From assembly GCA_024275415.1 (NCBI GenBank), contig JAJRZD010000060.1, forward strand, positions 1 to 15,702: a stretch of DNA of 15,702 nt, in the 5' to 3' direction. How positions within the stretch are numbered: the stretch's first letter is position 1; each line of letters begins with the position of its first letter. Source of the stretch: an archaeon (GTDB lineage: Archaea; Asgardarchaeota; Thorarchaeia; Thorarchaeales; Thorarchaeaceae). The notes beneath the pieces were generated by a model that saw only the letters and a list, made by a program, of their open reading frames with translations, was not told where the DNA came from and searched no databases. This document shows, one piece after another, positions 1 through 14,758 of the stretch. The position numbers and the translations under genes were made by a program.

Positions 1-89
1 CCCTGGTGGACATGCGCGTCCACGACGTCAACGTGGTAGCAGACCTCGACTAGCACGACCCGAACAACCCCTCTGCTCCACCGCCGACA
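1..89 (+). repeat. Conserved cassette anchor repeat, copy 1 (type A; cut by window edge; in-frame TAG at 51-53)
   Basis: Frame +3 reads LVDMRVHDVNVVADLD*HDPNNPSAPPPT. Positions 1-60 match 10981-11040 at 55/60 nt. Confidence 0.95.
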
Positions 90-122
90 GGGGACTCTTC
101 CGATGGGAAGGGCTTATTTGCA

Positions 123-881
123 GTGGAGAATGATGGAACTGCGATGCAAGCTCCAGAGCAAGACCCATTTGTTGATACAAATGCCGACAATGCGGCTTTA
201 TCAACTACCTCATGGTGGACTGGTTGGTGGCCCGTTCTTCATGTCAAGTCTACTCAAGTATTGTCGACAGGTTCCTACACAGTAGAGGTTTCTCTAGATT
301 TGCTTGGTGCATTCAAACTGGTGAGTTTTGATATCTGGGTTCCTCAACTTGATATCCTGAATGAGGATGGAATTGCGGTGGCTACCCAGTCTGCGAATGA
401 TGCCTTTTGGTCAGATGCTCTCCCACAAATCAAATTGCCCAAATATATCGCAGAAGGATGTTTACTTGCTTTAGAGGTGCTTGTAGTTATGGCAACCCCA
501 GCAGATCCTGTCATTTATGGTGTTATGATAGGTCTACTGAGTGCATGGCTTGTGTCATCATTGGTCTTCCTTTATGCCATTGGCGAGGCAGTGAAGATGG
601 GCTTGATGTCGCCGGGTGCGGCATTCAGTGAGTTGTTTGAAATGCTTTTATTCACCGTAGGAGCATCTTTAGTGGATGGATATTTCATGGCAAAGAGGTT
701 CTATGATGTGATATGGTCAAAGATTGCAGTTGGAACTCGCAAACTGGTCGTTTGGGGACTTGTCTTCAATATCTTGAACCTTGTGTCCAAGATTGCAATG
801 ACTGGGCTATTATTGAGCATGATGACATATTATCTGTATAATCACCTCGAACCATATACGCAGAATCCCGCATATACATGA
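123..881 (+). CDS. Cassette 1 variable C-terminal module (putative polymorphic toxin/recognition CT), hydrophobic
   Basis: In frame with repeat copy 1 but separated from it by TAG 51-53. Motifs NDGT, WWTGWWPVLH, LDLLG, followed by several hydrophobic helices. The start at 123 is probably not native. Function is inferred from architecture only. Confidence 0.75.
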   Translation: MENDGTAMQAPEQDPFVDTNADNAALSTTSWWTGWWPVLHVKSTQVLSTGSYTVEVSLDLLGAFKLVSFDIWVPQLDILNEDGIAVATQSANDAFWSDALPQIKLPKYIAEGCLLALEVLVVMATPADPVIYGVMIGLLSAWLVSSLVFLYAIGEAVKMGLMSPGAAFSELFEMLLFTVGASLVDGYFMAKRFYDVIWSKIAVGTRKLVVWGLVFNILNLVSKIAMTGLLLSMMTYYLYNHLEPYTQNPAYT

Positions 882-891
882 GGAATGGAAC

Positions 892-1431
892 ATGAATACG
901 TTAATATCATCGATAATATCGAGTATGTTGGCTGTTTTTTCAGTCAGTTCCCTTTATTTTGGATCAAATACGAGGGGACCAATGATATTGCAGCAGTTTG
1001 GAAAAACAGTTCTCAAGAGAACTTGGCGTCTTCTTGCACTAGCCGAACTAAACGTTGCTACAATCTCATGGTTCTGCTTCTTCTTCCTACTAGAACTGCC
1101 TTTCGATACATCAATAAATTCGGCGACGACAACGGCCCTAGATATTTTCCTCTTTTTGTCCCTTCTATCTGTACTTGTTATATTTGTTGAACGAGGTCAC
1201 ATTAAAGCCCCTTATCGAACTATTAGATCGGATGCTGATTTATTTGCTCTCGAGATGGAACGATCAGAGAACCAATTGAAAACTCTTGAGGATATCATTG
1301 TACGAATCGAAACTAACCCAAGAATCTCCAAAGAGAGTGCCAAGGACTTCCTATTGAACCTAAGCACTAGGAACGATGAAGTGGGTCTGAGATCTCGGAC
1401 ATATTTGGAATCTATGGAACGGAGTCAATGA
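892..1431 (+). CDS. Cassette 1 partner membrane protein (putative immunity), TM helices plus C-terminal helical domain
   Basis: ATG 892 with GAGGA at 880-884 overlapping the upstream stop. C-terminal LSTRNDEVG resembles LLNRTDEVG in the cassette 6 partner. Confidence 0.8.
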   Translation: MNTLISSIISSMLAVFSVSSLYFGSNTRGPMILQQFGKTVLKRTWRLLALAELNVATISWFCFFFLLELPFDTSINSATTTALDIFLFLSLLSVLVIFVERGHIKAPYRTIRSDADLFALEMERSENQLKTLEDIIVRIETNPRISKESAKDFLLNLSTRNDEVGLRSRTYLESMERSQ

Positions 1432-1453
1432 GATAAACCGAGTTCTTGGATTA

Positions 1454-2311
1454 TTGCAAGTCCTCGACACCATCGTCATTGGAGCTGGGAGGTTCTACTC
1501 CTCTGGGCTGAGCGAGATGCGCCTCCACGACATCAACGTCGTCACTGACCTCAACGAGCACGATCCCAACTCGTCTACTCCTGATGAGCCTGTTGAATAT
1601 GATGAGACTGGGATACCAACAGAAATTGAAAAGCGCAGAACAGATTTGATTCTTGAACCAATAGCTGTATCTGTTACAGCGGTCTGGCAAGTGGTTGATT
1701 TATTGCCTTGGCTAGTGTTATCTTTCACTACTGATAGTATTGATTTCATCATGAAAGTGGATCTTTTAGGTACCATTCAGCTTGATACATTGGCAATATC
1801 AATACCAATCATCGAAGCCATGTCACAAGCAGAGCTTGATGTGACTGCCGAAAAGGTGAATGACTACACAAGATTGGTATTCTCCTTTACTGTGCCGTTC
1901 ATAGTCGGACAGCTCGTGGTTCAGAGTTTGAGATTTCTCGAGAATATGAGTTGGGATCCTGTAAAGATGGGAATTGGAATGATGGCATGGCTTGCACTAT
2001 GGCTTAGCTACATCACCATCCTTGAGAATCTCGTTCGTGATGGAGAACTGCATCCGTGGGGTGTAGCCTATAACTTTCTGGGAATCGCAGTATCGCTTTT
2101 GCCGGGACTACGCAGCGGACTATCAACGGCAGGTAATCTTGTTAGGACTCTTCAGAAATTTTACTTGGGCAGCCTGCTCGAGTCTGTATATACAGGTGGG
2201 AGAATAAGAAGCGCTATATGGACTACTGCAATTGCACTCTTGAAGGTATTTGCATTTGCTACATGTTTGACCATGTATGTACAATTGATATCTCATGGAT
2301 TCAATGTGTAG
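1454..2311 (+). CDS. Cassette 2 ORF: anchor plus divergent variable module
   Basis: 285-aa ORF from TTG. Motifs YDET, a degenerate W..VDLLPWL in place of WTGWWP, and VDLLG, then a hydrophobic C-terminal half. Confidence 0.8.
   Translation: MQVLDTIVIGAGRFYSSGLSEMRLHDINVVTDLNEHDPNSSTPDEPVEYDETGIPTEIEKRRTDLILEPIAVSVTAVWQVVDLLPWLVLSFTTDSIDFIMKVDLLGTIQLDTLAISIPIIEAMSQAELDVTAEKVNDYTRLVFSFTVPFIVGQLVVQSLRFLENMSWDPVKMGIGMMAWLALWLSYITILENLVRDGELHPWGVAYNFLGIAVSLLPGLRSGLSTAGNLVRTLQKFYLGSLLESVYTGGRIRSAIWTTAIALLKVFAFATCLTMYVQLISHGFNV
1463..1604 (+). repeat. Cassette anchor repeat, copy 2 (type B)
   Basis: Encodes LDTIVIGAGRFYSSGLSEMRLHDINVVTDLNEHDPNSSTPDEPVEYD. 1577-1604 is identical to 13543-13570 (28 nt). 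Confidence 0.92.
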
Positions 2312-2317
2312 AGGTGA
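2311..2317 (+). promoter_or_regulatory. Shine-Dalgarno GAGGTGA for cassette 2 partner
   Basis: GAGGTGA overlaps the cassette 2 stop and ends 4 nt before ATG 2322. Confidence 0.7.
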
Positions 2318-2321
2318 CAAA

Positions 2322-2633
2322 ATGGATGCAATATTGCTGTTCGCGATGGTCATTGTGATATGTATAACTCTTTTAGTCACATCAACCTACTACGCACAAA
2401 ACTTGGATAGAATCCCGCAAGGACTGAAGCGGATGGGTGCCTACCTCTTTGCATCACAAAGAAGAGAGATAATAGTTTGGGAATCTCTTGGCATCTTGAT
2501 CCTTCTCGTTTTTGTGGTTCCCGCAGCATTCGTTTTTAGTGTTTCCGTGTTACCGTTGGTGGTTATTGCATGCATCTTTCTTCCTATAATGATATTTCTA
2601 ACCATTTCCCTGGGGGAGGAAAGACACTATTAA
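2322..2633 (+). CDS. Cassette 2 partner small membrane protein (putative immunity)
   Basis: The RBS favours ATG 2322 over 2295. About 103 aa with ~3 hydrophobic segments. Confidence 0.78.
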   Translation: MDAILLFAMVIVICITLLVTSTYYAQNLDRIPQGLKRMGAYLFASQRREIIVWESLGILILLVFVVPAAFVFSVSVLPLVVIACIFLPIMIFLTISLGEERHY

Positions 2634-2747
2634 CGGCACGATGGAGAACCTTCACAAGCTGCTCTCGAAACAATGGCTACTCAAGAATGAAATTCTATGA
2701 TAGGACTGTCTTCCACGGCTCCAGTTTGACCTTGTGCTCCATAGGGG

Positions 2748-2911
2748 GACAATGTCTTTCGGGTCATCAAGTACGTGGGGGTCCTGGGCTACCGCATGGA
2801 CAGCTACACCCTCGTGGACATGCGCGTCCACGACATCAACGTCGTCACAGACCTCGACCAGCACGACCCGAACTCAGCTACTCCGCCACCGACGCAGGAT
2901 CCGCCCGCTGG
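2748..2911 (+). repeat. Cassette anchor repeat, copy 3 (type A)
   Basis: Encodes DNVFRVIKYVGVLGYRMDSYTLVDMRVHDINVVTDLDQHDPNSATPPPTQDPPA. 2760-2842 matches 5966-6048 at 81/83 nt. Confidence 0.95.
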
Positions 2912-3731
2912 GGGAGAGCCAGAACCCGTGGTGTATGATGGTACAAAAGGAACTCCAAAACTAGGAAGCACGTTTATGGTGGAAGATTTCTTTGAATCAA
3001 ACTCCCAAGATGTTCAGGCTTATTGGACAGGATGGTGGCCTGTGTTGCACATTCGATTCTCATTCTATCCTATACCTGAAATCAATTTGATTTTGCATTT
3101 TACTATTGATATACTTGGTTCCTTCTCCATTGACCCAGAAACTGTTCTAAACATCCTGAATCCAGTGTTGATGACATATGGAGTCAAGAACGCTCAGAAT
3201 GTTGACAATGTGTATCAAATGGTCATGCGTGATATCGTAGATTATCTGTTTGGCATGGGAGGCGTTGCTTGGCGTGTTGCATGGGCTGCCGCCCTGACAC
3301 TGAAACTGACATCCTTAGTTATGGATACGGGCCCATGGGGTGCAGCCTTATTTGCGGCAAATACATTAATCTATGTGGGGGCCTTGATTGCTGGCGCCGC
3401 TCAGGTCGTTCAAGACGCCCTTGACGGGATTTTGCATCCTCTCGTTGCAGCATTCATTCTTATCCTGAATGCCTTAGCAATAGCTGTGGATGGCTTAAAC
3501 AAACTATATTCGTCTGCTAAAGGTGATACAGAACTCAATAGACTACAGGAAGCGGGAAACCTATTAACCGAGACCGAAATAGAGAACAAACATCGTGGAG
3601 TCTGTTTCAGATATGCTGCCGGCCTTGTGCTGATGATAACCGCTTGCGGTTTAGTGACTGCAGGTGTTGGACTCCTAGTGTGGTTCTTGGCACAAGGAAT
3701 CGATATAACATATGACACAGTAGCTACATAA
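2775..3731 (+). CDS. Cassette 3 ORF: anchor plus variable module
   Basis: 318-aa ORF from GTG, with in-frame TAG at 2742 upstream. Motifs YDGT, YWTGWWPVLH, IDILG, then Ala/Gly-rich hydrophobic helices and a C-terminal TM segment. Confidence 0.82.
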   Translation: MGVLGYRMDSYTLVDMRVHDINVVTDLDQHDPNSATPPPTQDPPAGGEPEPVVYDGTKGTPKLGSTFMVEDFFESNSQDVQAYWTGWWPVLHIRFSFYPIPEINLILHFTIDILGSFSIDPETVLNILNPVLMTYGVKNAQNVDNVYQMVMRDIVDYLFGMGGVAWRVAWAAALTLKLTSLVMDTGPWGAALFAANTLIYVGALIAGAAQVVQDALDGILHPLVAAFILILNALAIAVDGLNKLYSSAKGDTELNRLQEAGNLLTETEIENKHRGVCFRYAAGLVLMITACGLVTAGVGLLVWFLAQGIDITYDTVAT

Positions 3732-3745
3732 GGAGAAATACAAGA

Positions 3746-4120
3746 ATGCTAGAGGTTTTCATTCTCTTCTGTTTAGGATTACTTCTATTGCTCCCACCAC
3801 AGGTGTTCCTAATCTCTGGAGAATCTCAACTTATGTCCTTTTACAGATATGGAATTCCAATAGAAGATGAAAATGCAATCAGACTAAAGCGCATCGTTGA
3901 GAGGAAGGGTGGTTTGCTACTCCTCGCTCTGATTCTTTATCTGCCATATTTGGGGCTCCCGTTATTTGCATTAATAGTATTTTCTGATGCAGTTAATCTA
4001 TATTTGTTTCCTGCTTTATTGTTTGCAGGATTCTTAATATATGCCCAAAATACAGGAACGATTCTTGCATTCCTCATCAAACTAAAACAAGCGAAGTCAA
4101 CCAGTCAAGAACCAGCTTAG
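3746..4120 (+). CDS. Cassette 3 partner membrane protein (putative immunity)
   Basis: AGGAG at 3731-3735 overlaps the upstream stop. 124 aa, Leu-rich, ~3 TM segments. Confidence 0.8.
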   Translation: MLEVFILFCLGLLLLLPPQVFLISGESQLMSFYRYGIPIEDENAIRLKRIVERKGGLLLLALILYLPYLGLPLFALIVFSDAVNLYLFPALLFAGFLIYAQNTGTILAFLIKLKQAKSTSQEPA

Positions 4121-4230
4121 ATCCGTCCTTTCTCAGGTAGTTTCTATCCCTTTTAAGGACATAAATAGGGTGACCTCTGCCGGATGGCATTAGGCTTCTC
4201 CCCTGATGGCAATGTGAGCCCGTGCTGTAG

Positions 4231-4400
4231 GAGGTGAACAGCGCCTCAAGAATCATCGATACCATTGCAATCCGAGCTGGGCGCATTACTCATACGGCTT
4301 GAGCGAGATGTGCGTCCATGACATCAACGTCGTCACTGACCTCGACCAGCACGACCCGGACTCGTCAATCCCACCCCCAACGAAGGATCCACCTGCGGGA
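4231..4400 (+). repeat. Cassette anchor repeat, copy 4 (type B; 1-nt deletion at ~4285)
   Basis: EVNSASRIIDTIAIRAGR (frame +1) shifts to YSYGLSEMCVHDINVVTDLDQHDPDSSIPPPTKDPPA (frame +3), colinear with copy 2. Confidence 0.9.
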
Positions 4401-5226
4401 CAAACTCAACAAACCATCACGCATGATGGAACCCTGGATAGCAAAACTGAGGTCACGAAATATAAAAGCCAAGCAACTGTAGGTTCGAAGTTTGAAGAAA
4501 CGAGCAACATGATTTCAGTTTACTGGACTGGTTGGTGGCCATTGCTTCATTTTGAGATACCGCAGGAGACCATCCCAGATGTTGCTTTATCAATTTACAT
4601 CACATTGGATATACTAGGCAACATTCAAGTTCAATCCTTCAATATTCAATTCCTAGGCCTTGAAGATATGAATGCCTCTGAAGGCGATCAACTCGTATCT
4701 GCTATTCGACCCTCAAGCAATAGTATTGTCGGAACAGCATCGTCTTGGAGTTACCTCTTGACTATTTCAGGCATCTTCTACTCGACTGCTAAACTCATTT
4801 CGCTATACATGGTTCTTGGCAATACATGGCAGGAGCTAGCTTTTTGGGCTGCGATAGGTTTGTGTATTGCTACATTATTACCCGGACTATTTCTTCTTGC
4901 ACAAGCTGTAGCGGGTGTAATAGCAGACCCACTTCATTCAGCTCTTTACTTCTTTGGCGCTGCACTTGCTGCTCTATATACATTCGGTGCCAATAGCAAG
5001 GCAATAGATGATTATGGGCTCGAAGAGTGAAGGTGCATCCAGATTTCTTCGATTCTTCAAGGATGATTCTAGGAGTCCCTATCAAGCAGATCAACGGTGG
5101 CAGAATGCAGGATTGAAAGGTCGAGTGCATTTTGGGATAATGATGGTCCAACTCTCTGCGTTGGTAGCATTAACTATAATAGCTACAGGCTTCTTTCTAG
5201 GATGGGTTCGGTCATGGTTTGTGTAG
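4231..5226 (+). pseudogene. Cassette 4 module, frameshifted (ORFs 4299-5030 and 5008-5226)
   Basis: Motifs HDGT, YWTGWWPLLH, LDILG. FGANSKAID joined to MIMGSK...GLKGRVHFGIMMVQL aligns with uninterrupted cassette 9 IGANKAAVDKMI...GFEGRTHIGLMVAQL. The shift lies within 5006-5028. Confidence 0.8.
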
Positions 5227-5244
5227 TTGGAGAGAATAGTTTAG

Positions 5245-5703
5245 ATGAATGAAACGAGAAATACAATGGAGATGTTAGAATTACTGCAGTCAATCACTGA
5301 AAACGTTATCTTCCTATCTATTGCCTTTGGTGCAGCTGGACTGCTATGGTTGCTTGGAGCCCTTTACAGGTATCGAGGAACAGTCCTTCTAAGTCAACTG
5401 TCGCGAGATCAAATCGACCAAGCTAGGGGATTTGGGTCATGGTATGCAAAAAACATCACAGGAAATCCGAGGTCTGTTCTCTATTCAATGGCACATTACA
5501 CATTGATCCCTTTGACTTTCTTGATAGCTGGGTTCATATTTGCGCCATTCGAATTCGATTTGGTGCTCGAGCGCATCTTGCCCGTCTTTCCATTCTTTGT
5601 GATTCTGGGGCTAGTATGTGGCATAGATTTCCGGTATCGATGGTGGGGGACGGGTAAACCAGAACCTATGGAAAGTGCTACCCACGAAAACCATGAAGGC
5701 TAA
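5245..5703 (+). CDS. Cassette 4 partner membrane protein (WYxxxI family, putative immunity)
   Basis: 152 aa with TM helices. GFGSWYAKNITGNPRSVLYSMAH is similar to the partners of cassettes 5 and 9. Confidence 0.82.
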   Translation: MNETRNTMEMLELLQSITENVIFLSIAFGAAGLLWLLGALYRYRGTVLLSQLSRDQIDQARGFGSWYAKNITGNPRSVLYSMAHYTLIPLTFLIAGFIFAPFEFDLVLERILPVFPFFVILGLVCGIDFRYRWWGTGKPEPMESATHENHEG

Positions 5704-5773
5704 CATTTGTCACCTGCTTGGAGAGAATTACTTGAATATGGTTCTTTAGCAATCGCCTACAGTAGCCTCTGGT

Positions 5774-5950
5774 ATGAAGCACTTTTATGTCTATCAAGAC
5801 ACCCAGAACGGAGGCTCGTACTCGGAACTCATGCTACCTGTACAAATCCTTCACCAAGACGGGGAAGTTGTGGTGGGGCCCGTACCAGGGCGGTGACGGT
5901 GCCGTCTTCGCAAGCATCGACGGGTAGGGTCGTCCCAACCCATCGGTGAG
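5774..5950 (+). pseudogene. Degraded remnant of the upstream constant (trunk) region of the parent protein
   Basis: High-GC3 reading MKHFYVYQDTQNGGSYSELM / YLYKSFTKTGKLWWGPYQGGDGAVFASID / VGSSQPIGE runs into cassette 5 if frameshifts at ~5834 and ~5921 are allowed. Confidence 0.5.
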
Positions 5951-6112
5951 GTGGAGAACGCCTCCCGGGTCATCACGTACGTGGGGGTCCTGGGCTACCG
6001 CATGGACAGCTACAACCTCGTGGACATGCGCGTCCACGACATCAACGTGGTAGCAGACCTGAACGAGCACGATCCCAATAACCCCTCAACCCCGCCGCCA
6101 ACCCATGACCCG
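5945..6112 (+). repeat. Cassette anchor repeat, copy 5 (type A)
   Basis: Encodes GEVENASRVITYVGVLGYRMDSYNLVDMRVHDINVVADLNEHDPNNPSTPPPTHDP. Confidence 0.95.
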
Positions 6113-6892
6113 GACGAATCATTGGTCCATGATGGAACTACTGTTGGAACGAGCGATGAGGCTCTTTGTGTTCTAGGGGGATATATTGATGACCTATTTG
6201 CTTCGATTGCAGGTGAGATTTCTGTTTGGTGGACAGGATGGTGGCCGACTTTACATATCCAAATCTCGAAAGTGATAACAAGTGCTATCACGATAGACCT
6301 ACACATTACAGTTGATATTCTAGGCAACCTAGAATTCGATACTATTGACTATAAAATAAGTGGATATGAATCGCTGAGTGAAGATGATTCTGAAGCAGCT
6401 GCCCACGCTGTTGTTGAATCTTCAAGATGGGCATTGGATACCGCCATTGTATTATCCGCTGCTTCCATGACTCTTGCATGGTTGGCAGTTGATATCCTAG
6501 CAGATATAGCCACACCATTGACTGAAAACATCTTCTGGGTGACACTTGGTATTGCAATGGTTTCAACTTTCACAGCTTGGGGTCTAATTATCTGGAAAGC
6601 ACAACAACTAGGTGTCCCAAAGTGGGTTCGAGCGTTAGGATTTCTTGCGTCTGCATTAACACTTCTGTGGTCGGGGAGTCGGAACTATAATACAGCTGCT
6701 GCGTTAGTAGATGAGTGTCACTTCACAAGAAAGGTTACTGACTACTTTGGAGATCTTTGGTCTTGGGATTTCATAAGGAATAATTATAACAATGTGCGAG
6801 TTCGGACTCATGTTGGTTATGCTTTTGCGAGGATTGTCTGTGCTGTGTCCGCATTTGTTATATTTGCAGGATTATGGATGGGATGGATATAG
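5951..6892 (+). CDS. Cassette 5 ORF: anchor plus variable module
   Basis: 313-aa ORF from GTG. Motifs HDGT, WWTGWWPTLH, VDILG, hydrophobic helices, and RVRTHVG before a terminal TM segment. Confidence 0.82.
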   Translation: MENASRVITYVGVLGYRMDSYNLVDMRVHDINVVADLNEHDPNNPSTPPPTHDPDESLVHDGTTVGTSDEALCVLGGYIDDLFASIAGEISVWWTGWWPTLHIQISKVITSAITIDLHITVDILGNLEFDTIDYKISGYESLSEDDSEAAAHAVVESSRWALDTAIVLSAASMTLAWLAVDILADIATPLTENIFWVTLGIAMVSTFTAWGLIIWKAQQLGVPKWVRALGFLASALTLLWSGSRNYNTAAALVDECHFTRKVTDYFGDLWSWDFIRNNYNNVRVRTHVGYAFARIVCAVSAFVIFAGLWMGWI

Positions 6893-6936
6893 ATGCAGTA
6901 TTGCTGCTACATTTTCTTCTTAGATTATCAATTATC

Positions 6937-6943
6937 AGGAGGT
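6937..6943 (+). promoter_or_regulatory. Shine-Dalgarno AGGAGGT for cassette 5 partner
   Basis: AGGAGGT ends 8 nt before ATG 6952. Confidence 0.7.
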
Positions 6944-6951
6944 ATGATGAG

Positions 6952-7341
6952 ATGTACGGAGTTCTTATAACGGCAATCACTGGGTGCTTCATCGTATTCT
7001 CTATAACAGGGTTCTACCTTTATAGAAAAGGTTGGGAGTCTGCACAAGATTCGATTCTCTCAAATGGGAACATTCCATTGAATGCTAGAGGCTTGTGGTA
7101 CATCAGGAACATCTCCACAGTTCCTCGTGCAATAGCCTATCATGTCATTGAGGGGTCATTTCCAATTCTTGGATTTCTCATCATTTGCTATTTAGCAATC
7201 TACGAGTATTTCTATATCATTTTACTGACAACAGGATGGCTAGTGATTGTAAGCATATCTAGAGGGATAATTCAAGGAAATATCCATTATAAGCGAAATA
7301 AGGAGGTTCTTGATAAATTACGTCAATGTCAGTCTTGTTAG
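6952..7341 (+). CDS. Cassette 5 partner membrane protein (WYxxxI family, putative immunity)
   Basis: Start moved from 6874 to 6952 on RBS evidence. Contains RGLWYIRNISTVPRAIAYH and ~3 TM segments. Confidence 0.8.
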   Translation: MYGVLITAITGCFIVFSITGFYLYRKGWESAQDSILSNGNIPLNARGLWYIRNISTVPRAIAYHVIEGSFPILGFLIICYLAIYEYFYIILLTTGWLVIVSISRGIIQGNIHYKRNKEVLDKLRQCQSC

Positions 7342-7364
7342 TATCGGCGTAGTAGCAACTTGAC

Positions 7365-7917
7365 ATGAGTTTACTTGATTCATTTTGAGTCACGCTCTTG
7401 ACTTTCTTCGTGTGGGATTTGCTTGGACCTCTATGATTGATGAGTCTTAGCCCAGTCAAATTCTTCAGCACAGTGTCGACAGAAATTATGGTATCAGCAA
7501 AGTTTTGGACTGCGTCCATATGCAAGGGATCTGTTCACTGCTTCACTAATAGCTTATACGCTTTCTTCATTGGCGGTGATATACTTTATCGCACAAGCAT
7601 ATCTTGACGGCTCATTGTACTATCTGGATGCATTCATTGGACTGGTGGTAATGATATGAGGAATTCTCTTCGCTGGCAATGCCATCTCGACGCAATCCAT
7701 TTATGGAACAGTAATGATCTTCTTTTGGCTCCCCATTCTATCTGTTGGAATCCTTTGGCCAGAATAGCTGACTTCGTTTGTATCAGGCCTCCAATTCTGG
7801 ATTCTACTTTCGTTAACACTGGCTTTTCTAAGCGTCATGTGCAGCAGCCCCGATTCAGCTGGATGTTTCGAAGAGGCATATGACCTACTGATAAAGGATG
7901 ACGAGGAGGTTCAGTGA
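7365..7917 (+). pseudogene. Degraded polytopic membrane-protein gene (extra partner-like)
   Basis: Frame +3 reads MSLLDSF*VTLLTFFVWDLLGPL*LMSL. Frame +1 then reads ...LWYQQSFGLRPYARDLFTASLIAY...VVMI*GILFAG...ILWPE*LTSF...KDDEEVQ*. Hydrophobic coding character continues across the stops at 7386, 7434, 7657 and 7765. Confidence 0.6.
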
Positions 7918-8009
7918 GTCCGGTGCAGCGACCGTCACCCTCCGTAGCATCGACTCGAACTTTGACAGGGACGCTCTGGTGATACTCATGACCAAGCGGG
8001 GATGAAGCC

Positions 8010-8863
8010 ATGTTCACAGACCTCGACCAGCAGGATTCCAATCCACCTGCCCTACCTCCTCCAACACAAGATGACGATGTAGTAATTGAAGCAGATGGCA
8101 CTACTCAAGGTGCTCCACCTGCGAATAATCCATATTTGGCTCAGTTAAACCAAGTTATTGTCGATCTAACATCTACAATTGTGATGTATTGGGAAGGATG
8201 GTGGCCTGTCCTCCACATCTTGATAGATATGGCACTACCCGACTCTAGTTCCTGTGCTTTACATCTCACCATAGATCTACTAGGATTCAAAAACATGAAA
8301 TCCTTATCGCTAGATATCCTAGGGTTGAATGATATGCCTGAGAGCGATGGGGATGCGATAGTTAGTGATATCGACTCAGAATTTGCTGACTTGGTAGGTA
8401 TTATCGCTGCGGCCGTTGGAGTAGCTATGCAAGTTGCCTATTTCGCTCTAAAAGCTTTAGTGCAAATACTTCGGAGAAGGAATGGGTCTTCTGGGCAGCC
8501 TTGGTTGGCTATACTTTATTATATGTAAGCTATGTGGGATTGAGCTGGTACTATGCTCGTCTAACAGCAGCTAACGCGTTGTGTCAGGCGGTAATTTTCT
8601 TCGGAATGGCATTGATGTGTATCCTTAGTTTTGGCTGGGAGAATCATCTTACAACTCAATTCATGAAAGGAAAGGCTGCAGGCAGGATATGGAATTACTT
8701 TGATGACTTCTATAAGAACAACAAGTTAGCGAACATCAACAAATCCGGTTTTGAGGGTAGATCTCATGCAGGATTGCTGGTGATGAATGTGATTTGTTTT
8801 GCGTCCATAGTAGCCATTACATGTGGTATTGCATTCCTGGGGGGTGATAAGAACGATACATAG
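8010..8863 (+). pseudogene. Cassette 6 module, frameshifted (ORFs 8010-8528 and 8501-8863)
   Basis: Motifs ADGT, YWEGWWPVLH, IDLLG. Frame +2 from ~8462 reads ANTSEKEWVFWAAL (compare cassette 4 GNTWQELAFWAAI) through GFEGRSHAGLL. Implies a net 1-nt loss near 8450-8465. Confidence 0.78.
8014..8070 (+). repeat. Cassette anchor repeat, copy 6 (5'-truncated)
   Basis: TCACAGACCTCGACCAGCA (8014-8032) is identical to copy 3. Encodes TDLDQQDSNPPALPPPTQD. Confidence 0.85.
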
Positions 8864-8913
8864 TAATATGATTGCAGAAAACAGGACAATTGGAGGAATT
8901 TGAATTGAGTGAA

Positions 8914-9480
8914 ATGGAACTAATGTACCTATTCTGGTTGTTTTGTGCGACTCTGATAGTGTTCTTGCCAATTATCTACTATGTGATGGCTGGAACTGCA
9001 ATGAGAGGAAACTTGAAAGAAGAGGCTGTACCGAAATCTACTGATTTCGGCAGGAAGTATGGCGGCTTTCTTGAAAAACAAACTTGTTCAAGACAAAAAC
9101 TGACCAATATTCTTGCTTTCACAAGCCCTCTTACTGTCTATTGGGTTCTTTCCTTCCTTCTAGTTCCCCAGGCTTTCATAGAGCTTCTCAGCTACTCATG
9201 GTGGTTTTGGCCTGTTCTTGCCCTCTTTGGATATATAAGTATCACATCATCAGAAATTGAGTATTACGAAGAGCTTGGTGAATCAACATATCAACAAATC
9301 CTACAACAAGAAAATCCCGTTGAAGAAGCACTCGTACTTGTAAGGCATTACGAAAAGAAACCTATACACCAGAACTATGCGAGGGCGAAGGAACATCTTC
9401 TGAATAGGACTGATGAAGTTGGTGATGTCTTCCGCGAGGCCTATGCAAGATTGGAAGTTGAATCCATTGATTCGGACTAG
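8914..9480 (+). CDS. Cassette 6 partner: membrane protein with C-terminal helical domain
   Basis: GGAGGA at 8892-8897 suggests a start at TTG 8905 or ATG 8914 (ORF open from 8872). About 3 TM segments, then LLNRTDEVGDVFREAY. Confidence 0.8.
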   Translation: MELMYLFWLFCATLIVFLPIIYYVMAGTAMRGNLKEEAVPKSTDFGRKYGGFLEKQTCSRQKLTNILAFTSPLTVYWVLSFLLVPQAFIELLSYSWWFWPVLALFGYISITSSEIEYYEELGESTYQQILQQENPVEEALVLVRHYEKKPIHQNYARAKEHLLNRTDEVGDVFREAYARLEVESIDSD

Positions 9481-9551
9481 AAACGAAAGGTTGACGCAGG
9501 CATCTTCTTAAGCGGCTAAACCAGGCAATTCGGGCGAAGTAGTGCATATGC

Positions 9552-9650
9552 CGTGGACATGCGCGTCCACGACGTCAACGTGGTCGCCGATTTGAACGAG
9601 CAAAATCCAAACTCGTCCACCCCACCGCCAACGCAGGACCCGCCCGCTGG
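9552..9650 (+). repeat. Cassette anchor repeat, copy 7
   Basis: Encodes VDMRVHDVNVVADLNEQNPNSSTPPPTQDPPA. Confidence 0.93.
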
Positions 9651-10420
9651 AACAGATTATACGATGACTGGACCTGACGGTACAACAGAAGGTCTGGGTG
9701 AATACATCAATGAGGAGATGGATGAGAATATGCCAAGAATCATATCTCCTGAAGAGGTGAATGGTGAGGTTACTCAGTGGTGGACAGGACCCTGGCCTCG
9801 TCTTCATTCCAAAATCGATTATATGACAGAAGATGGCTATAGGGCAAAATATCACATCAGTAATGATTTGCTTGGAAATGTGCAGGTGGAGGAGGAGATG
9901 CAGCTAACGACCGAGTTGGCTGACGATCCAATTAATGACCCCGGCTTTTCAGCGTCTATTGCCGACGTTTACTTCAATACGCTAGTGACATTGTGGAGTG
10001 TTGAAATGGTTCTAATCATAACTGACATATTCACTGTCTGGGCTTGCGTTGCGTGGGAAAAGAATCCCTCATGGTGGCCACTGGCAGCAATTACCGGAGC
10101 TGCTTGGACAGCGGCTTTCAGCATCTACCTCGGATTGATGATTAATGAGATCCTATCCGAAACAGACAACCCGTTTGTACGTTTTTGGGCAATTGCACTA
10201 CTAGGCATCTCAATGGTCTTTGGATGGTCTATGACAGATTTCCTAAAAGACCTCGGAGTGTACCTCATCCAAAAGGGGATTCATTCATTCATTCACTGAG
10301 TTCTTTCTTGAACGAAATGCGCCGTCTTTAAGTTGGATGCTCTGGAAATTACTATGCACATTGATAGTGTTCATCATGGCGGGTCTAGTACTGACGATAA
10401 CTCTTCTGGAGATACTGTAG
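9553..10420 (+). pseudogene. Cassette 7 module, C-terminus out of frame at (ATTC)4 (ORF 9553-10299 plus 10295-10420)
   Basis: Motifs PDGT, WWTGPWPRLH, NDLLG. Removing one ATTC unit extends the ORF through TEFFLERNAPSLSWMLWKLLCTLIVFIMAGLVLTITLLEIL to TAG 10418-10420. Confidence 0.78.
10279..10294 (+). repeat. Tetranucleotide microsatellite (ATTC)4
   Basis: ATTCATTCATTCATTC read directly from the sequence, immediately before the premature TGA at 10297-10299. Confidence 0.9.
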
Positions 10421-10468
10421 AAACACCGATGTAAGAGAATAAATAGTTGAAAGAGGGACAAGTGCAAG

Positions 10469-10795
10469 ATGCAAACCATAGATCTCGATCCAGTGTCGAT
10501 GTACTTGATTGTATGTGGGATTCTAGTGTTCATATTGCCAATGCTTCTTGCGGGTTCTATTCTGCATTGGGTTCGAAAAGACTCGGTAGCACAGGAGATG
10601 ACCCGCAAGGCGGAACGTCTCATCAGCATGACCACGGGTAGCGTTGGAGTCCTGTTCCTGTTAGGATCAATCCCTATATTCAGCAACAAAGTAACAGGAT
10701 TTCATCTGATATCTGGCTTTGCTATATTGGCAATATCGACATGGACTGGAACATGGTATGCCATGAAACGAGTGCGTGACGCAAACGGAAGATGA
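10469..10795 (+). CDS. Cassette 7 partner small membrane protein (putative immunity)
   Basis: 108 aa with ~3 TM segments. Follows the restored cassette 7 stop by 48 nt. Confidence 0.78.
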   Translation: MQTIDLDPVSMYLIVCGILVFILPMLLAGSILHWVRKDSVAQEMTRKAERLISMTTGSVGVLFLLGSIPIFSNKVTGFHLISGFAILAISTWTGTWYAMKRVRDANGR

Positions 10796-10934
10796 TTATG
10801 AATCACCATTTTCACAAGGTTCAGGTCCAGCCCCTGACTGGTCGCCGCTGATAATGATATCGCCTGGCCCGGTGTCTGGGAGCAGCTATTTGTCAATTCA
10901 TGCTCTGGTAAGATGGAGAGTGATCTGATGCAAC

Positions 10935-11831
10935 TTGCATGGGAAACTGGGAATCCTTGGCTATCGGTACAGTAGCTACACCCTCGTGGACATGCGCGTC
11001 CACGACGTCAACGTGGTAGCAGACCTCAACGGGCACGATCCTGACTCTTCCACTCTGCCACCGACGCAGGATCCACCTGCTGGTGAAGAGCAAGCTGTGC
11101 AGGATTACGATGGTACACAAAATGGAGGTACGTCCACGGGATACCACATGCAGGCTGCAGATACTAGTCTAAGCGATGGTATGAATGATCTTCAATTATA
11201 TTGGACAGGTTGGTGGCCTCTATTACATGTCGTGTATAGTATTCCAATATCTGGTGATGGAGTTCAGTTGACTCTTAGCTTTCACATTGCCAAGAATCTT
11301 TTAGGGATAAGTGAATACACTGCTTTGCAGATTAGTGGGGATGAGTCATTTTATACTGATGCAGTTCCAGTCTTGTTGGCGTTGGCTTTTGAAAACATAT
11401 TTGCGCTAGTAATGATAAATGCAGTTCTTGTCGCATCCAATATTCTTGAGGCAGTTGTGAATTCAGCAAGTTACATTCCGGGAGCACTCATTGGCGCAAT
11501 TTCATTAGTTGTGGCAACCGTTACAGTATCATATCTTGCACCTGTCCATTTCATTCAAGGAGAAATCGAAGCAGGAAGAGCCAGTAACATAGTAGCGTTT
11601 GGTTTCCTATTGGAAGTAGCCTGGGCATGGCTAAATTTGGGAATGGATATGAAAGGTATCTATCAAACAGGCGGCTTATTCTTGCATAGCAAATTAATGA
11701 TAAGCAACTATTTGCCAGCATGTAGGCTAAAAGACTTCCTGAAAATCACGAAACTTGCCTACGTATTGGTTCTAAGCATCGGAGTTGCATTGCTTGCCAC
11801 AGCCATCTGGTATCTTCTGAACTCCTTTTAG
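10935..11831 (+). CDS. Cassette 8 ORF: anchor plus variable module
   Basis: 298-aa ORF from TTG. Motifs YDGT, YWTGWWPLLH, KNLLG, hydrophobic helices and a terminal TM segment. Confidence 0.82.
   Translation: MHGKLGILGYRYSSYTLVDMRVHDVNVVADLNGHDPDSSTLPPTQDPPAGEEQAVQDYDGTQNGGTSTGYHMQAADTSLSDGMNDLQLYWTGWWPLLHVVYSIPISGDGVQLTLSFHIAKNLLGISEYTALQISGDESFYTDAVPVLLALAFENIFALVMINAVLVASNILEAVVNSASYIPGALIGAISLVVATVTVSYLAPVHFIQGEIEAGRASNIVAFGFLLEVAWAWLNLGMDMKGIYQTGGLFLHSKLMISNYLPACRLKDFLKITKLAYVLVLSIGVALLATAIWYLLNSF
10947..11083 (+). repeat. Cassette anchor repeat, copy 8 (type A variant)
   Basis: Encodes LGILGYRYSSYTLVDMRVHDVNVVADLNGHDPDSSTLPPTQDPPA. Confidence 0.95.
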
Positions 11832-11903
11832 GGGATATTCTCGGAAACGAACCTCGTACACTAGGGAATAATCAATATAAGTGAAGTGAGATGAGAGCCT
11901 ACC

Positions 11904-12476
11904 ATGCAGGTATTCGATATCTTTGGCAGTGATCTAATAGAAGGCATTGCATTCGCAACGCTACTATCTGTTTCAGTAATTGTCAATCACCTCTCCAAAA
12001 GAATTGTAAAAGAGTCAATCGAATACGAGAGGACTGGCATTGAGAACATATCTTCTATGATATCCCGATTTGCCAACAAGCTAACAGTAGTGGGTTCTAA
12101 TGATTATCTCGCATCGAGACGAACTTTTCTGCGGCTTCATTTAGCAATCACTGTCCTTTGTCTAGGATTAATCCTGCTATTTACGTTCACTCCACTTGCG
12201 ATTGTGACATTCATTTTCTACCTATGTGTTTTCTCGGAAATGCTATACGACTTCCGCAACCGAGGGTACTTGGAAGACACAGTCGAATATCTTGTACAGA
12301 GAGTAGATGAATCGGCTAATGGTGTGCGTGAACTTGAAAAGATTCGCATGGAGATGCAGGATTTGATAGCCTACAACAAAGATGCCTTTGCTGAATTCCT
12401 AGAAATCCTAGCTCATAGAAGTGATGCTGTCAGCGAAAAAGCAAGAGAGATATCAAGATGTGTTAGAGAATCATGA
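11904..12476 (+). CDS. Cassette 8 partner 1: membrane protein with C-terminal helical domain
   Basis: 190 aa with ~3 TM segments. C-terminal LAHRSDAVSEKAREI resembles the partners of cassettes 1 and 6. Confidence 0.8.
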   Translation: MQVFDIFGSDLIEGIAFATLLSVSVIVNHLSKRIVKESIEYERTGIENISSMISRFANKLTVVGSNDYLASRRTFLRLHLAITVLCLGLILLFTFTPLAIVTFIFYLCVFSEMLYDFRNRGYLEDTVEYLVQRVDESANGVRELEKIRMEMQDLIAYNKDAFAEFLEILAHRSDAVSEKAREISRCVRES

Positions 12477-12492
12477 GTGTTGGGAGGGTCTC

Positions 12493-12939
12493 ATGGTGAG
12501 TGATTTACTTACATTTTCTCTTCTCGCTGTGCTATTACTCCTGTACTTTATCACTCTCCGTGTATTCTGTTTCCTCATATTGGTATTGTTATATCGATTT
12601 ACAGGACTTGGCATGTCTGCTGACTCGATCAAGTACTTCAAAGAACACCAGCTCCGTATGACATTGATATACTTCCTCGTGCCTGTGTTGGCAACTATCG
12701 GCATTGGAGTTTTCTCCTATATGATGCTCCTTATACCCTTAGCCAATGGAGACTTATGGCCCTTCTATTGGGCGAGCGGTGGAGTGCTTATCACTGATGC
12801 AGCACGTCAGTTTCTTCTATCTGTTATTTCACTTATCGGGATAGTTATGAGCTCGGTGTTCAGTCTAATGCGGTTGGGTCTTCCAAATCCATTGAAGTTG
12901 GGTCAATACTGGTGTGGATACAAACCTATGAGATTGTAG
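12493..12939 (+). CDS. Extra membrane protein (orphan partner-like)
   Basis: GGAGGGT at 12483-12489 favours ATG 12493 over 12421. About 3-4 TM segments. Confidence 0.75.
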   Translation: MVSDLLTFSLLAVLLLLYFITLRVFCFLILVLLYRFTGLGMSADSIKYFKEHQLRMTLIYFLVPVLATIGIGVFSYMMLLIPLANGDLWPFYWASGGVLITDAARQFLLSVISLIGIVMSSVFSLMRLGLPNPLKLGQYWCGYKPMRL

Positions 12940-12958
12940 TTGGCACCTATGGAGACGG

Positions 12959-13513
12959 ATGAATATGCTTTCCCTCTTTGCATTTATCGTATTAGCCATT
13001 ACATTCGGAATCTCATTACAGCTCGGTATTCTATGGACGGGGGATATTGGCGAAACCGAAATGGGATTCCTTCGACGAATTCTTTTTGGATCAAAAAAAG
13101 CATCCATTTTGACTTCGAACACCATCCTCATTGGGGGCTTTCTTGCGGTGCTCATTTTTGACTCACAGACAAATCATCTTGAGGTTATCATTTCCATCGT
13201 TCTCCTTGAATTAGCATTCCTCCTCATCGGGTCACATGTATTCCTGAATTGGCATATTGGATCTTATTGTGTCGCAGGGAGGAACAAGATGCAAATCCGT
13301 CTTCTTCGTGCTCAGACTGATCCTGCTCTCAAACAAATAGTCGCCAGACATACCATGTTGTCAGTGATAAATGAGATTCGCCAAGGGAATCGAGCCTCAG
13401 CGCAAGTGCTAAGGGATGCCATCACTTGTGGAGATTCTGAAAGTGAACTCCTTTTAAGACAAGGACTGGAGATTGATGAAGACCTTGTTAGAAGCATCCT
13501 AGACGAGTCCTAG
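12959..13513 (+). CDS. Extra membrane protein with soluble C-terminal tail (orphan partner-like)
   Basis: GGAG at 12951-12954. 184 aa with ~3 TM segments followed by a charged helical tail. Confidence 0.77.
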   Translation: MNMLSLFAFIVLAITFGISLQLGILWTGDIGETEMGFLRRILFGSKKASILTSNTILIGGFLAVLIFDSQTNHLEVIISIVLLELAFLLIGSHVFLNWHIGSYCVAGRNKMQIRLLRAQTDPALKQIVARHTMLSVINEIRQGNRASAQVLRDAITCGDSESELLLRQGLEIDEDLVRSILDES

Positions 13514-13521
13514 TCATCCAT

Positions 13522-13570
13522 CAGCACGACCCGGACTCGTCCACTCCTGATGAGCCTGTTGAATATGATG
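13522..13570 (+). repeat. Cassette anchor repeat, copy 9 (strongly 5'-truncated)
   Basis: 13522-13541 is identical to 4347-4366, and 13543-13570 is identical to 1577-1604. Encodes QHDPDSSTPDEPVEYD. Confidence 0.9.
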
Positions 13571-13608
13571 GAACTCCCGGGGGATTAGAATACAGACCGC
13601 AAACCAGA

Positions 13609-14361
13609 ATGAAGGACACTGTAAATCAACTTTTCAATGACATGGCTGGATATATCTCAATTTATTGGACAGGTTGGTGGCCCGAATTGCATTTCGTGAT
13701 TAATCATGAGATAGCCACCGATATCACAATTTTCTCGGACTTGCCAATCGATGTTCTTAGTGTCATTCATTTGAGGAGTTTCAATCTTGAGTTTCTGGAT
13801 ATCAAGAACAAAACCGATGATGCGATCTCTATCCTCATTGTAGATATTCAATCAGTCACTAATAATACAATCTCCGGATCCACTGCTGACTATTATCTGG
13901 CAGGAGCAGAAATATCTTGGGTTTCTGCTGAGGTGATTGCTATGTGGGCGCCACCAACCACTGCCTCAGAAATTGCATTTTGGGATGCACTGGCAATATT
14001 TACCGCTCTAGCAATCGCAGGTCTTGTGTTCTTAGCACAGGATGTGGCCAACTGCAACGCCGGCCCATATCTTTCTGCGATGATATTCTTTGCAATGGCA
14101 CTTGTGTCCATGAAAGAGATTGGAGCGAATAAAGCAGCAGTTGATAAGATGATCACAGAAAGTCCTAAGACAGTAAGAGACTTTAACCTATTCAAAGACA
14201 AACGCTTTCGAACCTCATGGGCAAAGAAAGGGTTTGAAGGTCGGACGCATATCGGTCTTATGGTCGCTCAATTGTTGGTTCTTCTTACCATCATCACGAT
14301 TGCATGGGGTTTCATGGCTGAATGGGCGTTTGATGTGTTCCGATCAACGAGTCCATCCTGA
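13609..14361 (+). CDS. Cassette 9 variable module (homology starts at 13522, same frame)
   Basis: YDGT lies just upstream of the ATG. Motifs YWTGWWPELH, IDVLS, EIAFWDAL, GFEGRTHIGL and a terminal TM segment. Confidence 0.8.
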   Translation: MKDTVNQLFNDMAGYISIYWTGWWPELHFVINHEIATDITIFSDLPIDVLSVIHLRSFNLEFLDIKNKTDDAISILIVDIQSVTNNTISGSTADYYLAGAEISWVSAEVIAMWAPPTTASEIAFWDALAIFTALAIAGLVFLAQDVANCNAGPYLSAMIFFAMALVSMKEIGANKAAVDKMITESPKTVRDFNLFKDKRFRTSWAKKGFEGRTHIGLMVAQLLVLLTIITIAWGFMAEWAFDVFRSTSPS

Positions 14362-14403: not shown

Positions 14404-14758
14404 ATGGTGATGACGGGGTTGATGACGATGACATTTCTCATAGCCGGGGCTATTTGGCTTGTATTGCTAAAAGCCATCATGGACGGTAAGAAGATTCAAG
14501 ACCGGGGATTGGATGAAAAACCTCTTGGTTTCGAATAGAACCGAAACGTGGTACGCGAAGCATATAACTAATGTGAAGCGTTCCATTCTGTTCTCCGTTT
14601 TTCATTTTGCCACAATCCCTTTCGTATTCCTGTCTTGTGTCCTGTTGTTCGAACCAGACTATTTCCAGCAATTGAGTCCTTCGATATTGCCATTACTCCT
14701 CTTTTTTGTGTTAGTAGGAATAGGTTCAGGTTTTGACAGGCGATATACAAAACGGTAA
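14404..14758 (+). pseudogene. Cassette 9 partner (WYxxxI family), frameshifted
   Basis: AAGGAG at 14388-14393. ATG 14404 reads MVMTGLMTMTFLIAGAIWLVLLKAIMDGKKIQDRGLDEKPLGFE*. Deleting 14536-14545 gives GFETWYAKHIT, colinear with GFGSWYAKNIT of the cassette 4 partner. Confidence 0.75.

Follow-up and report, generated by a model that had tools for sequence, protein, structure and literature searches.

Trunk-derived anchors with mosaic signal and independently inherited tips in a cassette array of a Thorarchaeaceae archaeon

Here we report that an array of short cassettes in a Thorarchaeaceae archaeon very probably serves as a silent reserve of C-terminal ends for a large, presumably secreted protein of Thorarchaeota, shuffled by recombination between the anchors of the cassettes. 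The window analysed is the whole 15,702-nt stretch of contig JAJRZD010000060.1, read on the forward strand, from assembly GCA_024275415.1 (127 contigs, 93% complete, 4.5% contamination). It holds nine anchor copies, and each cassette is made of an anchor, a variable tip and a small partner gene directly 3' of the tip.

Results

Organization of the cassettes

All features of the array lie on the forward strand. Anchor copy 1 (1..80), truncated at the contig start and carrying an in-frame TAG at 51-53, is followed by tip 1 (123..881) and by partner 1 (892..1431), a small membrane protein; tip 1 is 81% identical in protein to an orphan tip of genome G006 and partner 1 is 62% identical to the partner of that tip. 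Anchor copies 2 (1461..1604) and 4 (4253..4396) both have a 5' part of type B. Anchor 2 and tip 2 lie in one frame (1454..2311) ahead of partner 2 (2322..2633), and tip 4 (4299..5226), whose frame is split by a frameshift near 5010-5030 and which is 45% identical to a full-trunk tip of G021, precedes partner 4 (5245..5703). Between them, anchor copy 3 (2743..2912) belongs with the frame of anchor 3 and tip 3 (2775..3731) and with partner 3 (3746..4120). The longest trunk remnant is anchor copy 5 (5781..6112), with frameshifting deletions near 5816 and 5925; the frame of anchor 5 and tip 5 (5951..6892), modelled as a small β-sheet with a hydrophobic helical bundle, is followed by partner 5 (6952..7341). 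Anchor copy 6 (8014..8070) is diverged and short, tip 6 (8010..8863) is split by a frameshift near 8500-8528, and partner 6 lies at 8872..9480. Anchor copy 7 (9552..9650) stands in the frame with tip 7 (9553..10299; tip 42% identical to that of full trunk P0002), upstream of partner 7 (10469..10795), and anchor copy 8 (10947..11083) in the frame with tip 8 (10935..11831; tip 35% identical to a G020 full-trunk tip), upstream of partner 8 (11904..12476). Finally, anchor copy 9 (13522..13575) retains the linker part only, and is associated with the open frame of tip 9 (13492..14361), which shares 36% identity with the tip of the G021 trunk, and with partner 9 (14404..14758), split over two frames.

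The anchors are 3' fragments of a trunk gene

The nine window anchors correspond to 3' fragments of a trunk gene located on another contig of the same genome (C119:102,585-105,955, about 1,120 residues), and 12 further copies on five other contigs bring the anchor alignment to 21 copies. The anchor comprises the last two β-strands of the trunk lectin-like domain and a linker rich in proline, which extends to a conserved Asp-Gly-Thr motif. Its 5' end is staggered among copies and GC3 steps from 0.88 to 0.39 at the anchor/tip junction; both features fit the Rhs displacement model (PMC2935791), in which recombination between core copies was proposed, and shown in Salmonella (PMC2935791; PMC3967940). 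Among 40 trunk homologues the body is conserved and the last ~250 residues are divergent, and other Thorarchaeota also carry cassette arrays. At the level of sequence comparison, these data show that the anchors are trunk fragments and that one trunk family bears many tips. It should be noted that the only trunk found in this genome is frameshifted near C119:104,590 in the assembly, so that any present-day activity of the system is presumptive.

Anchors and tips have separate histories

The anchor of copy 7 matches that of the C119 trunk gene at 95 of 98 nt, including codons absent from every other copy, yet their tips are only 26% identical. Similarly, copy 5 and a copy on contig C53 have two frameshifting deletions in common and tips that are 24% identical, and the 28-nt linker of anchor copy 2 is identical in four copies whose tips are unrelated. 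The window tips are ~24% identical to one another in protein (median). Across nine genomes, the nearest anchor lay in the same genome for about 36 of 45 copies (36.3), compared with 5 of 45 for the nearest tip, where 7.3 were expected by chance: anchors cluster by genome and tips do not. Identity at synonymous sites of the anchors reached 78% within this genome; it was 58% when genomes were compared with one another, codon bias alone would give 54%, and the conserved tip motif had 34%.

Cassette 1 aligns with a G006 cassette over 1.4 kb, partner included, at 58-86% DNA identity (50-nt bins), but its anchor is 64% identical to the G006 copy and matches copy 8 at 46 of 47 nt. Full trunks elsewhere carry four of the window tip types: 4 and 9 in G021, 8 in G020 and 7 on P0002. 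Related tips were accompanied by related partners in 5 of 12 pairs, against 5 of 849 otherwise (permutation p 1e-4); the remaining 7 of the 12 had no detectably related partner. Taken together, these comparisons show that anchors and tips have different histories.

Mosaicism of the anchors is a property of the set

An earlier note on this DNA had described the anchors as patchworks made by repeated recombination or gene conversion, a proposal that is supported here, with the discordance between anchors and tips as its strongest evidence rather than the examples then quoted. The matches behind these examples are all exact as described. Copy 3 agrees with copy 5 at 81 of 83 positions (2760-2842 vs 5966-6048) and then has the GTCGTCAC variant, as in copies 2 and 4, and copy 2 is identical to copy 5 over 17/17 nt (1553-1569 and 6062-6078). 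Taken singly, however, the mosaic examples are not significant (triplet p 0.08-0.20), and no triplet of window anchors passes Bonferroni correction (best 0.08). The match between copies 1 and 8 (1-47 vs 10981-11027) marks recent sharing rather than a breakpoint. Copy 9 does equal copy 4 over 20/20 nt (13522-13541 and 4347-4366) and copy 2 over 28/28 nt (13543-13570 and 1577-1604), but a chimera of these two is not required and was set aside, since closer whole-length relatives lie on other contigs: a C96 copy identical over 43 nt and a C110 copy ~94% identical over 54 nt. Part of the synonymous identity is due to the strong GC3 bias of the anchors (0.88), which the note had left out of account.

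The PHI test that the note had proposed, run with codon-block permutation on the window anchors, gave p values of 0.0003-0.03. Site incompatibility climbed with distance, from 0.27 for near to 0.55 for far sites; a purpose-written codon simulation served as clonal null, and under each of its three settings a single run out of 150 attained such a rise. None of 300 clonal simulations (three settings, 100 runs each) showed triplet mosaicism as high as that observed, and multi-nucleotide anchor haplotypes are present in all four combinations. PHI on third positions alone was not significant, nor was a one-breakpoint ILD test on the anchors (p 0.31-0.42). AU tests of left versus right anchor trees were mutually rejecting, but such tests are biased on alignments this short and, the calibrated ILD test being not significant, they were left unused. 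In other genomes, the nine anchors of G018 showed high incompatibility (0.51) but without decay over distance (p 0.31-0.75), and PHI was not significant in G018, G029 and G025, the last two offering few sites. Recombination among the anchors is thus supported collectively, from the copies as a set, and may have proceeded by gene conversion, reciprocal crossover or circle integration, all of which are compatible with these data.

Predicted folds of the trunk, tip and partner proteins

The trunk model contains a caspase/CHAT-like domain and two sandwich domains of lectin-like type (Z 18.2 and 13.6). In this predicted model, residues 41-215 superimpose on the CHAT domain of 8tl0 (Z 11.9, rmsd 3.8, 158 aligned), and His104-Gly105 and Cys139 are invariant in 23 trunk sequences; the trunk is thus modelled as a caspase/CHAT-like fold with invariant His/Cys and a putative peptidase role. 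A hydrophobic helix (7-39) at the N-terminus resembles a signal or signal-anchor, and the trunk protein is presumably secreted. The 66 aligned tips form a single fold family with 3-5 hydrophobic segments, and the tip variants fall into 236 clusters at 50% identity. The partner genes encode small membrane proteins, some of which also occur without tips.

Searches of Pfam, NCBIfam, PADLOC, PDB sequences and the Atlas gave no name for trunk, tips or partners, the Atlas lead DUF6345 scoring 0.89, below the useful mark. No Rhs match was obtained for the intact trunk in Pfam or NCBIfam, its model consisting of alpha/beta and beta-sandwich domains. The 66 tips have no known family in common and no recognised toxin fold or family; fold searches returned generic helical bundles at most (best Z 10.4), which does not establish a new fold. 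When tip 1 and partner 1 were predicted as a complex, the score was 0.56, versus 0.00 for the best control, which gives weak support to the pair: 58 of 80 solved pairs and 2 of 110 mismatched ones attain the mark, and scores at or under 0.60 include only 7 of the 80 solved pairs, yet both passing mismatches. Contact agreement between runs was at least 0%, and partner pLDDT at least 58.

Discussion

We propose that homologous recombination in an anchor zone of 50-330 nt would shift tip-partner modules among the trunk, the silent cassettes and other genomes. Every crossover would fuse the left part of one anchor with the right part of another, and repeated crossovers would thereby leave fine-grained anchor patchworks, anchors alike within a genome and tips that are ancient and diverse. 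The exchanges would be of the RecA/RadA type, possibly through excised circles as proposed for Rhs, and the direction of any individual exchange is presumptive.

Could the patchwork have arisen by ancient tandem duplication, the anchor being held by strong purifying selection and codon bias and mutating recurrently at its few variable sites? The high anchor GC3, the synonymous identity expected from codon usage alone, the non-significant third-position PHI and ILD tests and one recurring two-base haplotype (Asp-Gln vs Asn-Glu) that could be compensatory speak for such a history. We judge it very improbable, as synonymous identity within the genome exceeds both that between genomes and that at the tip motif, selection on the protein cannot hold shared frameshifts, the stop in anchor 1 or short upstream frames, the closest relatives of the tips lie in other genomes, and the mosaicism exceeds that of the clonal codon simulations; at the level of the sequences, it is largely refuted by the anchor/tip discordance. 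Hardly less improbable is an origin of the short shared blocks as chimeras of short-read assembly or of co-assembled strains. The fragmentation and contamination of the assembly would allow it, contigs C39, C53, C102, C110 and C119 end within anchors or trunk arms, and the longest exact matches between anchors, two of 114 nt, are at contig ends, so that the copy on C53 may represent the copy 5 site of another strain; such an allele, with another tip behind the same arm, would be a tip swap in itself. Exact shared blocks within the window are moreover at most 42 nt, far under the 141-nt contig overlaps, so that single reads span the blocks plus unique flanks, and eight further genomes, each assembled independently, display the same genome-specific pattern of anchors. 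A cassette array with a repeated 5' motif might also suggest a dedicated diversifier, either a diversity-generating retroelement or an integron-like site-specific recombinase, but we hardly entertain this: no reverse transcriptase (PF00078) match was found in the 93% complete genome, every tyrosine recombinase is encoded either 53 kb or more away from the trunk or on a different contig, the staggered 5' ends and the third-position variability of the Asp-Gly-Thr motif are unlike a fixed DNA site, and the anchor differences involve all bases, not adenines alone.

Recombination may also be real and the protein a variable surface adhesin or kin-recognition tag, with the hydrophobic tip as membrane anchor or identity domain. 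This reading concerns function only and fits the same recombination mechanism. The two lectin-like sandwiches, the membership of all 66 aligned tips in one fold family rather than many unrelated enzyme folds, and the precedent of VARTIG in Thermococcales, of unknown function (PMC8416519), make it a serious possibility, about which we nevertheless have considerable doubt: a plain membrane anchor would not call for >200 variants, each with its own small membrane gene, tipless partner genes exist, and caspase-like domains typically accompany toxin release (PMC3482391).

Shuffled C-terminal cassettes have several known counterparts. As in Rhs (PMC2935791; PMC3967940), an intact gene is accompanied by strings of dissociated tips behind core fragments of variable length, there is a GC step where core and tip meet, the evolution of the two is decoupled and the tips are older than the carrier strains. 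Unlike Rhs, the array protein is without Rhs/YD repeats and without the PxxxxDPxG motif, its trunk combines a predicted signal peptide with caspase-like and lectin-like domains, its tips have one hydrophobic fold, the host is an Asgard archaeon and the anchors go down to 50 nt. With polymorphic toxin systems, including CdiA-CT/CdiI and MafB/MafI (PMC3482391), it has in common a constant N-terminal body with a variable C-terminus, stand-alone cassettes homologous to the 3' end of the body, probable cassette-body recombination, a small co-varying gene after the tip in what would be toxin-then-immunity order, a predicted caspase-like domain in a putative processing role and extra tipless partner genes. 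It differs from them in the N-terminal position of the caspase-like domain, far from the tip, in the lack of any recognised toxin or immunity family and in partners that are membrane proteins. VARTIG (PMC8416519) is likewise a large archaeal protein, lineage-specific and secreted, as the trunk presumably is, with one tip fold family, whose hypervariable last ~200 residues are swapped with shorter downstream genes. However, it is built of Ig domains, whereas here the tip is a β-sheet with a hydrophobic helical bundle and the body is lectin-like, the folds being unrelated; its authors saw no recombination within loci, and the present anchors are homogenised within the genome, with one partner gene per tip. 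In the Vibrio cholerae T6SS effector-immunity arrays (PMC5361080), modules are also inserted serially behind a homologous anchor and orphan immunity genes occur, but there the old effector is mostly lost, whereas whole tip-partner cassettes are kept here.

The presumably secreted protein could thus change its membrane-type tip in the manner of bacterial polymorphic toxins. The tip may be a membrane-active toxin or an identity tag and the partner an immunity or receptor protein; we lean, with modest confidence, towards toxin and immunity. More tentatively, and with somewhat less conviction than doubt, we consider that Thorarchaeota may possess a so far undescribed polymorphic toxin or kin-recognition system of their own, in which a glycan-binding secreted trunk would carry a caspase-like domain that cleaves the protein at the Asp-Gly-Thr linker, releasing a membrane-inserting tip of new fold that would be neutralised or read by its cognate membrane partner, while recombination at the anchors would shuffle >200 tip variants both inside a genome and from one genome to another.

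Of the 36 other genomes sampled from one Asgard family, 21 have the system, as against 0 of 24 genomes outside the family. A literature search found no paper linking Thorarchaeota to polymorphic toxins, a mention in Makarova et al. 2019 (mBio, archaeal polymorphic toxins) being possible, and nothing relevant on Asgard archaea with hypervariable or caspase-like proteins. Mosaic anchors are predicted by the Rhs displacement model, and the mechanism is therefore not new; the novelty lies in the setting, a lineage-specific system within one Asgard family. The array offers direct sequence evidence that DNA is exchanged in Asgard archaea and that an interaction protein is reshuffled there by homologous recombination across very short stretches of homology, and its tip/partner pairs are testable candidates for conflict or self-recognition in relatives of eukaryotes.

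Organization of the array and its trunk gene

The window is one whole 15.7 kb contig of a 3.5 Mb assembly in 127 contigs (completeness 92.9%, contamination 4.5%); the names attached to related loci and proteins are Candidatus Thorarchaeota. It contains nine cassettes, numbered in window order and each composed of an anchor, a hydrophobic tip of ~250 residues and a partner gene encoding a membrane protein of 100-200 residues. Several cassettes are decaying: frameshifts split tips 4 (5008-5030) and 6 (8501-8528), tip 7 ends prematurely after an ATTC repeat (10279-10299) and anchor 1 has a stop at 51-53. Two tipless partner-like membrane genes (12959-13513 and 12421-12939) resemble orphan immunity genes, the second being 36% identical to a gene of an array in genome G001 (L007:5278-5856). 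At 15331-15702 the minus strand holds the terminal part of a multi-copy gene, which weakly matches PD-(D/E)XK (PF07788, E 0.005) and has coiled-coil repeats on the adjoining contigs; the assembly is broken there by that gene. On other contigs, MNT-HEPN toxin-antitoxin-like gene pairs were seen by eye among cassettes (L002:3436-4091, L004:984-1727, L005:526-1360).

Twelve further anchor copies lie on contigs C102, C110, C119, C53 and C96. The C119 anchor forms the 3' portion of a long gene (102,585-105,955, or L001:6586-9956), the sole trunk found in this assembly. It has one frameshift near 104,590 within a short TC repeat, which could reflect a genuine off state, strain variation or faulty assembly. 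Intact trunks, mostly of 1,060-1,470 residues, are common among relatives. The source-named members of 40 trunk homologues are nearly all Thorarchaeota, and matches occur in 21 of the 36 other genomes of the family and in 0 of 24 outside it. In the model of an intact trunk (pLDDT 78), an N-terminal hydrophobic helix precedes an alpha/beta domain that resembles the CHAT protease in 8tl0 (158 aligned, Z 11.9, rmsd 3.8). The model also has two sandwiches of jelly-roll type, one matched by a carbohydrate-binding module from a phage (Z 18.2) and the other by GH16 (Z 13.6). His104-Gly105 and Cys139 do not vary in 23 sequences. Trunks are modular (L065:5017-11376, L082:8455-12291, L061:256-4104, L081:9418-13374), some reaching 2,100 residues with a third sandwich domain, DUF2341-type domains, repeats or fibronectin-like segments.

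The anchor codes for the final two strands of the second sandwich, followed by a linker rich in proline that ends at Asp-Gly, found there in 113 of 126 sequences. The cassettes start at staggered points, with clear trunk homology beginning between ~150 and 14 nt ahead of the reference codon, or past it; copy 5 extends back ~275 nt, across two deletions. The variant 5' parts of copies 2 and 4 (type B; 1461-1520 and 4253-4310) resemble another trunk lineage, with residues 505-538 of protein P0034 as best match, and a lone tipless remnant lies at C38:39,964-40,038.

The anchor patchwork exceeds chance

An earlier note had read the anchors as patchworks made by repeated recombination or gene conversion. 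The five matches that it quoted are all present exactly as given. Taken singly, its examples reach p 0.08-0.20, and copy 9, described as a join of copies 4 and 2, is closer over its full length to the C96 and C110 copies than to such a chimera. Taken as a set, however, the patchwork is more than chance. Incompatibility affects 38-45% of the informative site pairs among window anchors, and the PHI test proposed as a check is significant (p 0.00005-0.014), also when whole codons are permuted and within-codon pairs left out (p 0.0003-0.03). Incompatibility rises from 0.27 for near sites to 0.55 for distant ones, a contrast that one clonal codon simulation in 150 attained under each of three settings, and triplet mosaicism exceeds that of 300/300 clonal simulations. 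Where three or four changes are linked in a block, all four combinations of such blocks are seen; the Gly-Tyr-Ser variant, for instance, is found with either downstream haplotype. No single triplet test was significant after Bonferroni correction, third positions alone gave no PHI-type signal, a one-breakpoint ILD test was not significant and the G018 anchors showed incompatibility without decay with distance; the mosaic is therefore fine-grained, and named parents cannot be assigned. Four cassettes whose tips are unrelated (1577-1604, 13543-13570, C96:1546 and C110:75809) have an identical 28-nt linker with the AT-rich codon use of tips, so exchange reaches as far as the Asp-Gly motif.

Anchors and tips have different histories

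Comparison of anchors with tips provides stronger evidence than the patchwork tests. Copy 7 equals the trunk anchor at 95/98 nt, including codons absent from every other copy; identity ends at the linker, and the tips are 26% identical. Copy 5 and the C53 copy have in common two frameshifting deletions in the arm, not maintainable by selection on the protein, whereas their tips are 24% identical and their distal anchors differ. Across nine genomes, whose cassettes are not independent, a cassette's own genome held its nearest anchor in 36.3 and its nearest tip in 5 of 45 cases (7.3 by chance). Cassette 1 and a G006 cassette share 81% protein identity, with DNA likeness continuing through the partner gene, but the anchor of cassette 1 resembles the G006 copy at 64% and copy 8 at 46/47 nt. 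At positions of amino-acid agreement, this genome's anchors use identical codons in 78% of cases; the figure is 58% between genomes, against an expectation of 54% given trunk codon usage, and 34% at the conserved tip motif. Tips silent here have relatives on full trunks: 4 and 9 in G021 (45%, 36%), 8 in G020 (35%) and 7 on P0002 (42%). In genomes G025 and G029 (L010:7311 region and L077), a common tip of 99% protein identity follows anchors of 85% DNA identity, the outcome either of recent transfer or of recent replacement of an anchor.

Several contigs end within anchors, 141-nt contig overlaps suggest short-read graph assembly and two 114-nt matches sit at contig ends. We consider misassembly as the source of the shared blocks very unlikely, since exact shared blocks in the window are at most 42 nt, well within read length, and the genome-specific anchor pattern is repeated in eight other assemblies. 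The position of the 114-nt matches means that the C53 copy may be an allele of another strain, which would be a tip swap all the same. Tips are ~24% identical to one another; the earlier note had described those next to the anchors as highly diverged. The discordance and the patchwork together support repeated recombination.

The array anatomy fits the excision/insertion model proposed for Rhs, in which two core fragments recombine to release a circle that contains a tip together with the genes following it; this circle enters another core copy by single crossover, displacing the old tip downstream (PMC2935791). Each such step would create anchors of hybrid origin and 5' ends that vary. In Salmonella, an orphan tip has been shown to fuse to the main gene (PMC3967940), and new units may alternatively arise by homology-facilitated illegitimate insertion (PMC5361080). 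Gene conversion, expected to give the same local patchwork, could also have acted. No reverse transcriptase was found in this 92.9% complete assembly and no tyrosine recombinase near the loci; we infer recombination from sequence comparison, assigning neither enzymes nor direction.

Possible function of tips and partners

All tips belong to a single family (236 clusters at 50% identity), modelled as a small sheet with hydrophobic helices (pLDDT 86); fold searches of the tip gave no clear known fold. Related tips have related partners in 5 of 12 pairs, compared to 5 of 849 otherwise, and partner genes occur also on their own. Complex prediction for tip 1 and partner 1 (0.56, best control 0.00) gives weak support, with contact agreement between runs of at least 0% and partner pLDDT of at least 58; of the pairs used for calibration, 58 of 80 solved and 2 of 110 mismatched ones attained the mark, 7 of the 80 and both mismatches doing so with scores at or under 0.60. 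As a first guess, the tip is somewhat more probably a membrane-active toxin, and the partner a membrane immunity protein, than not; the main rival is a kin-recognition or adhesion tag, a role discussed for VARTIG (PMC8416519). In bacterial systems, toxins are set free by caspase-like domains (PMC3482391); one may speculate that cleavage takes place at Asp-Gly-Thr here.

A literature search, whose coverage left out one relevant survey, found no paper joining Thorarchaeota and polymorphic toxins. The array differs from Rhs and VARTIG by domain content and, as judged from sequence, operates in the manner of polymorphic toxin loci that undergo C-terminal displacement. Such displacement is already known from polymorphic toxin loci.
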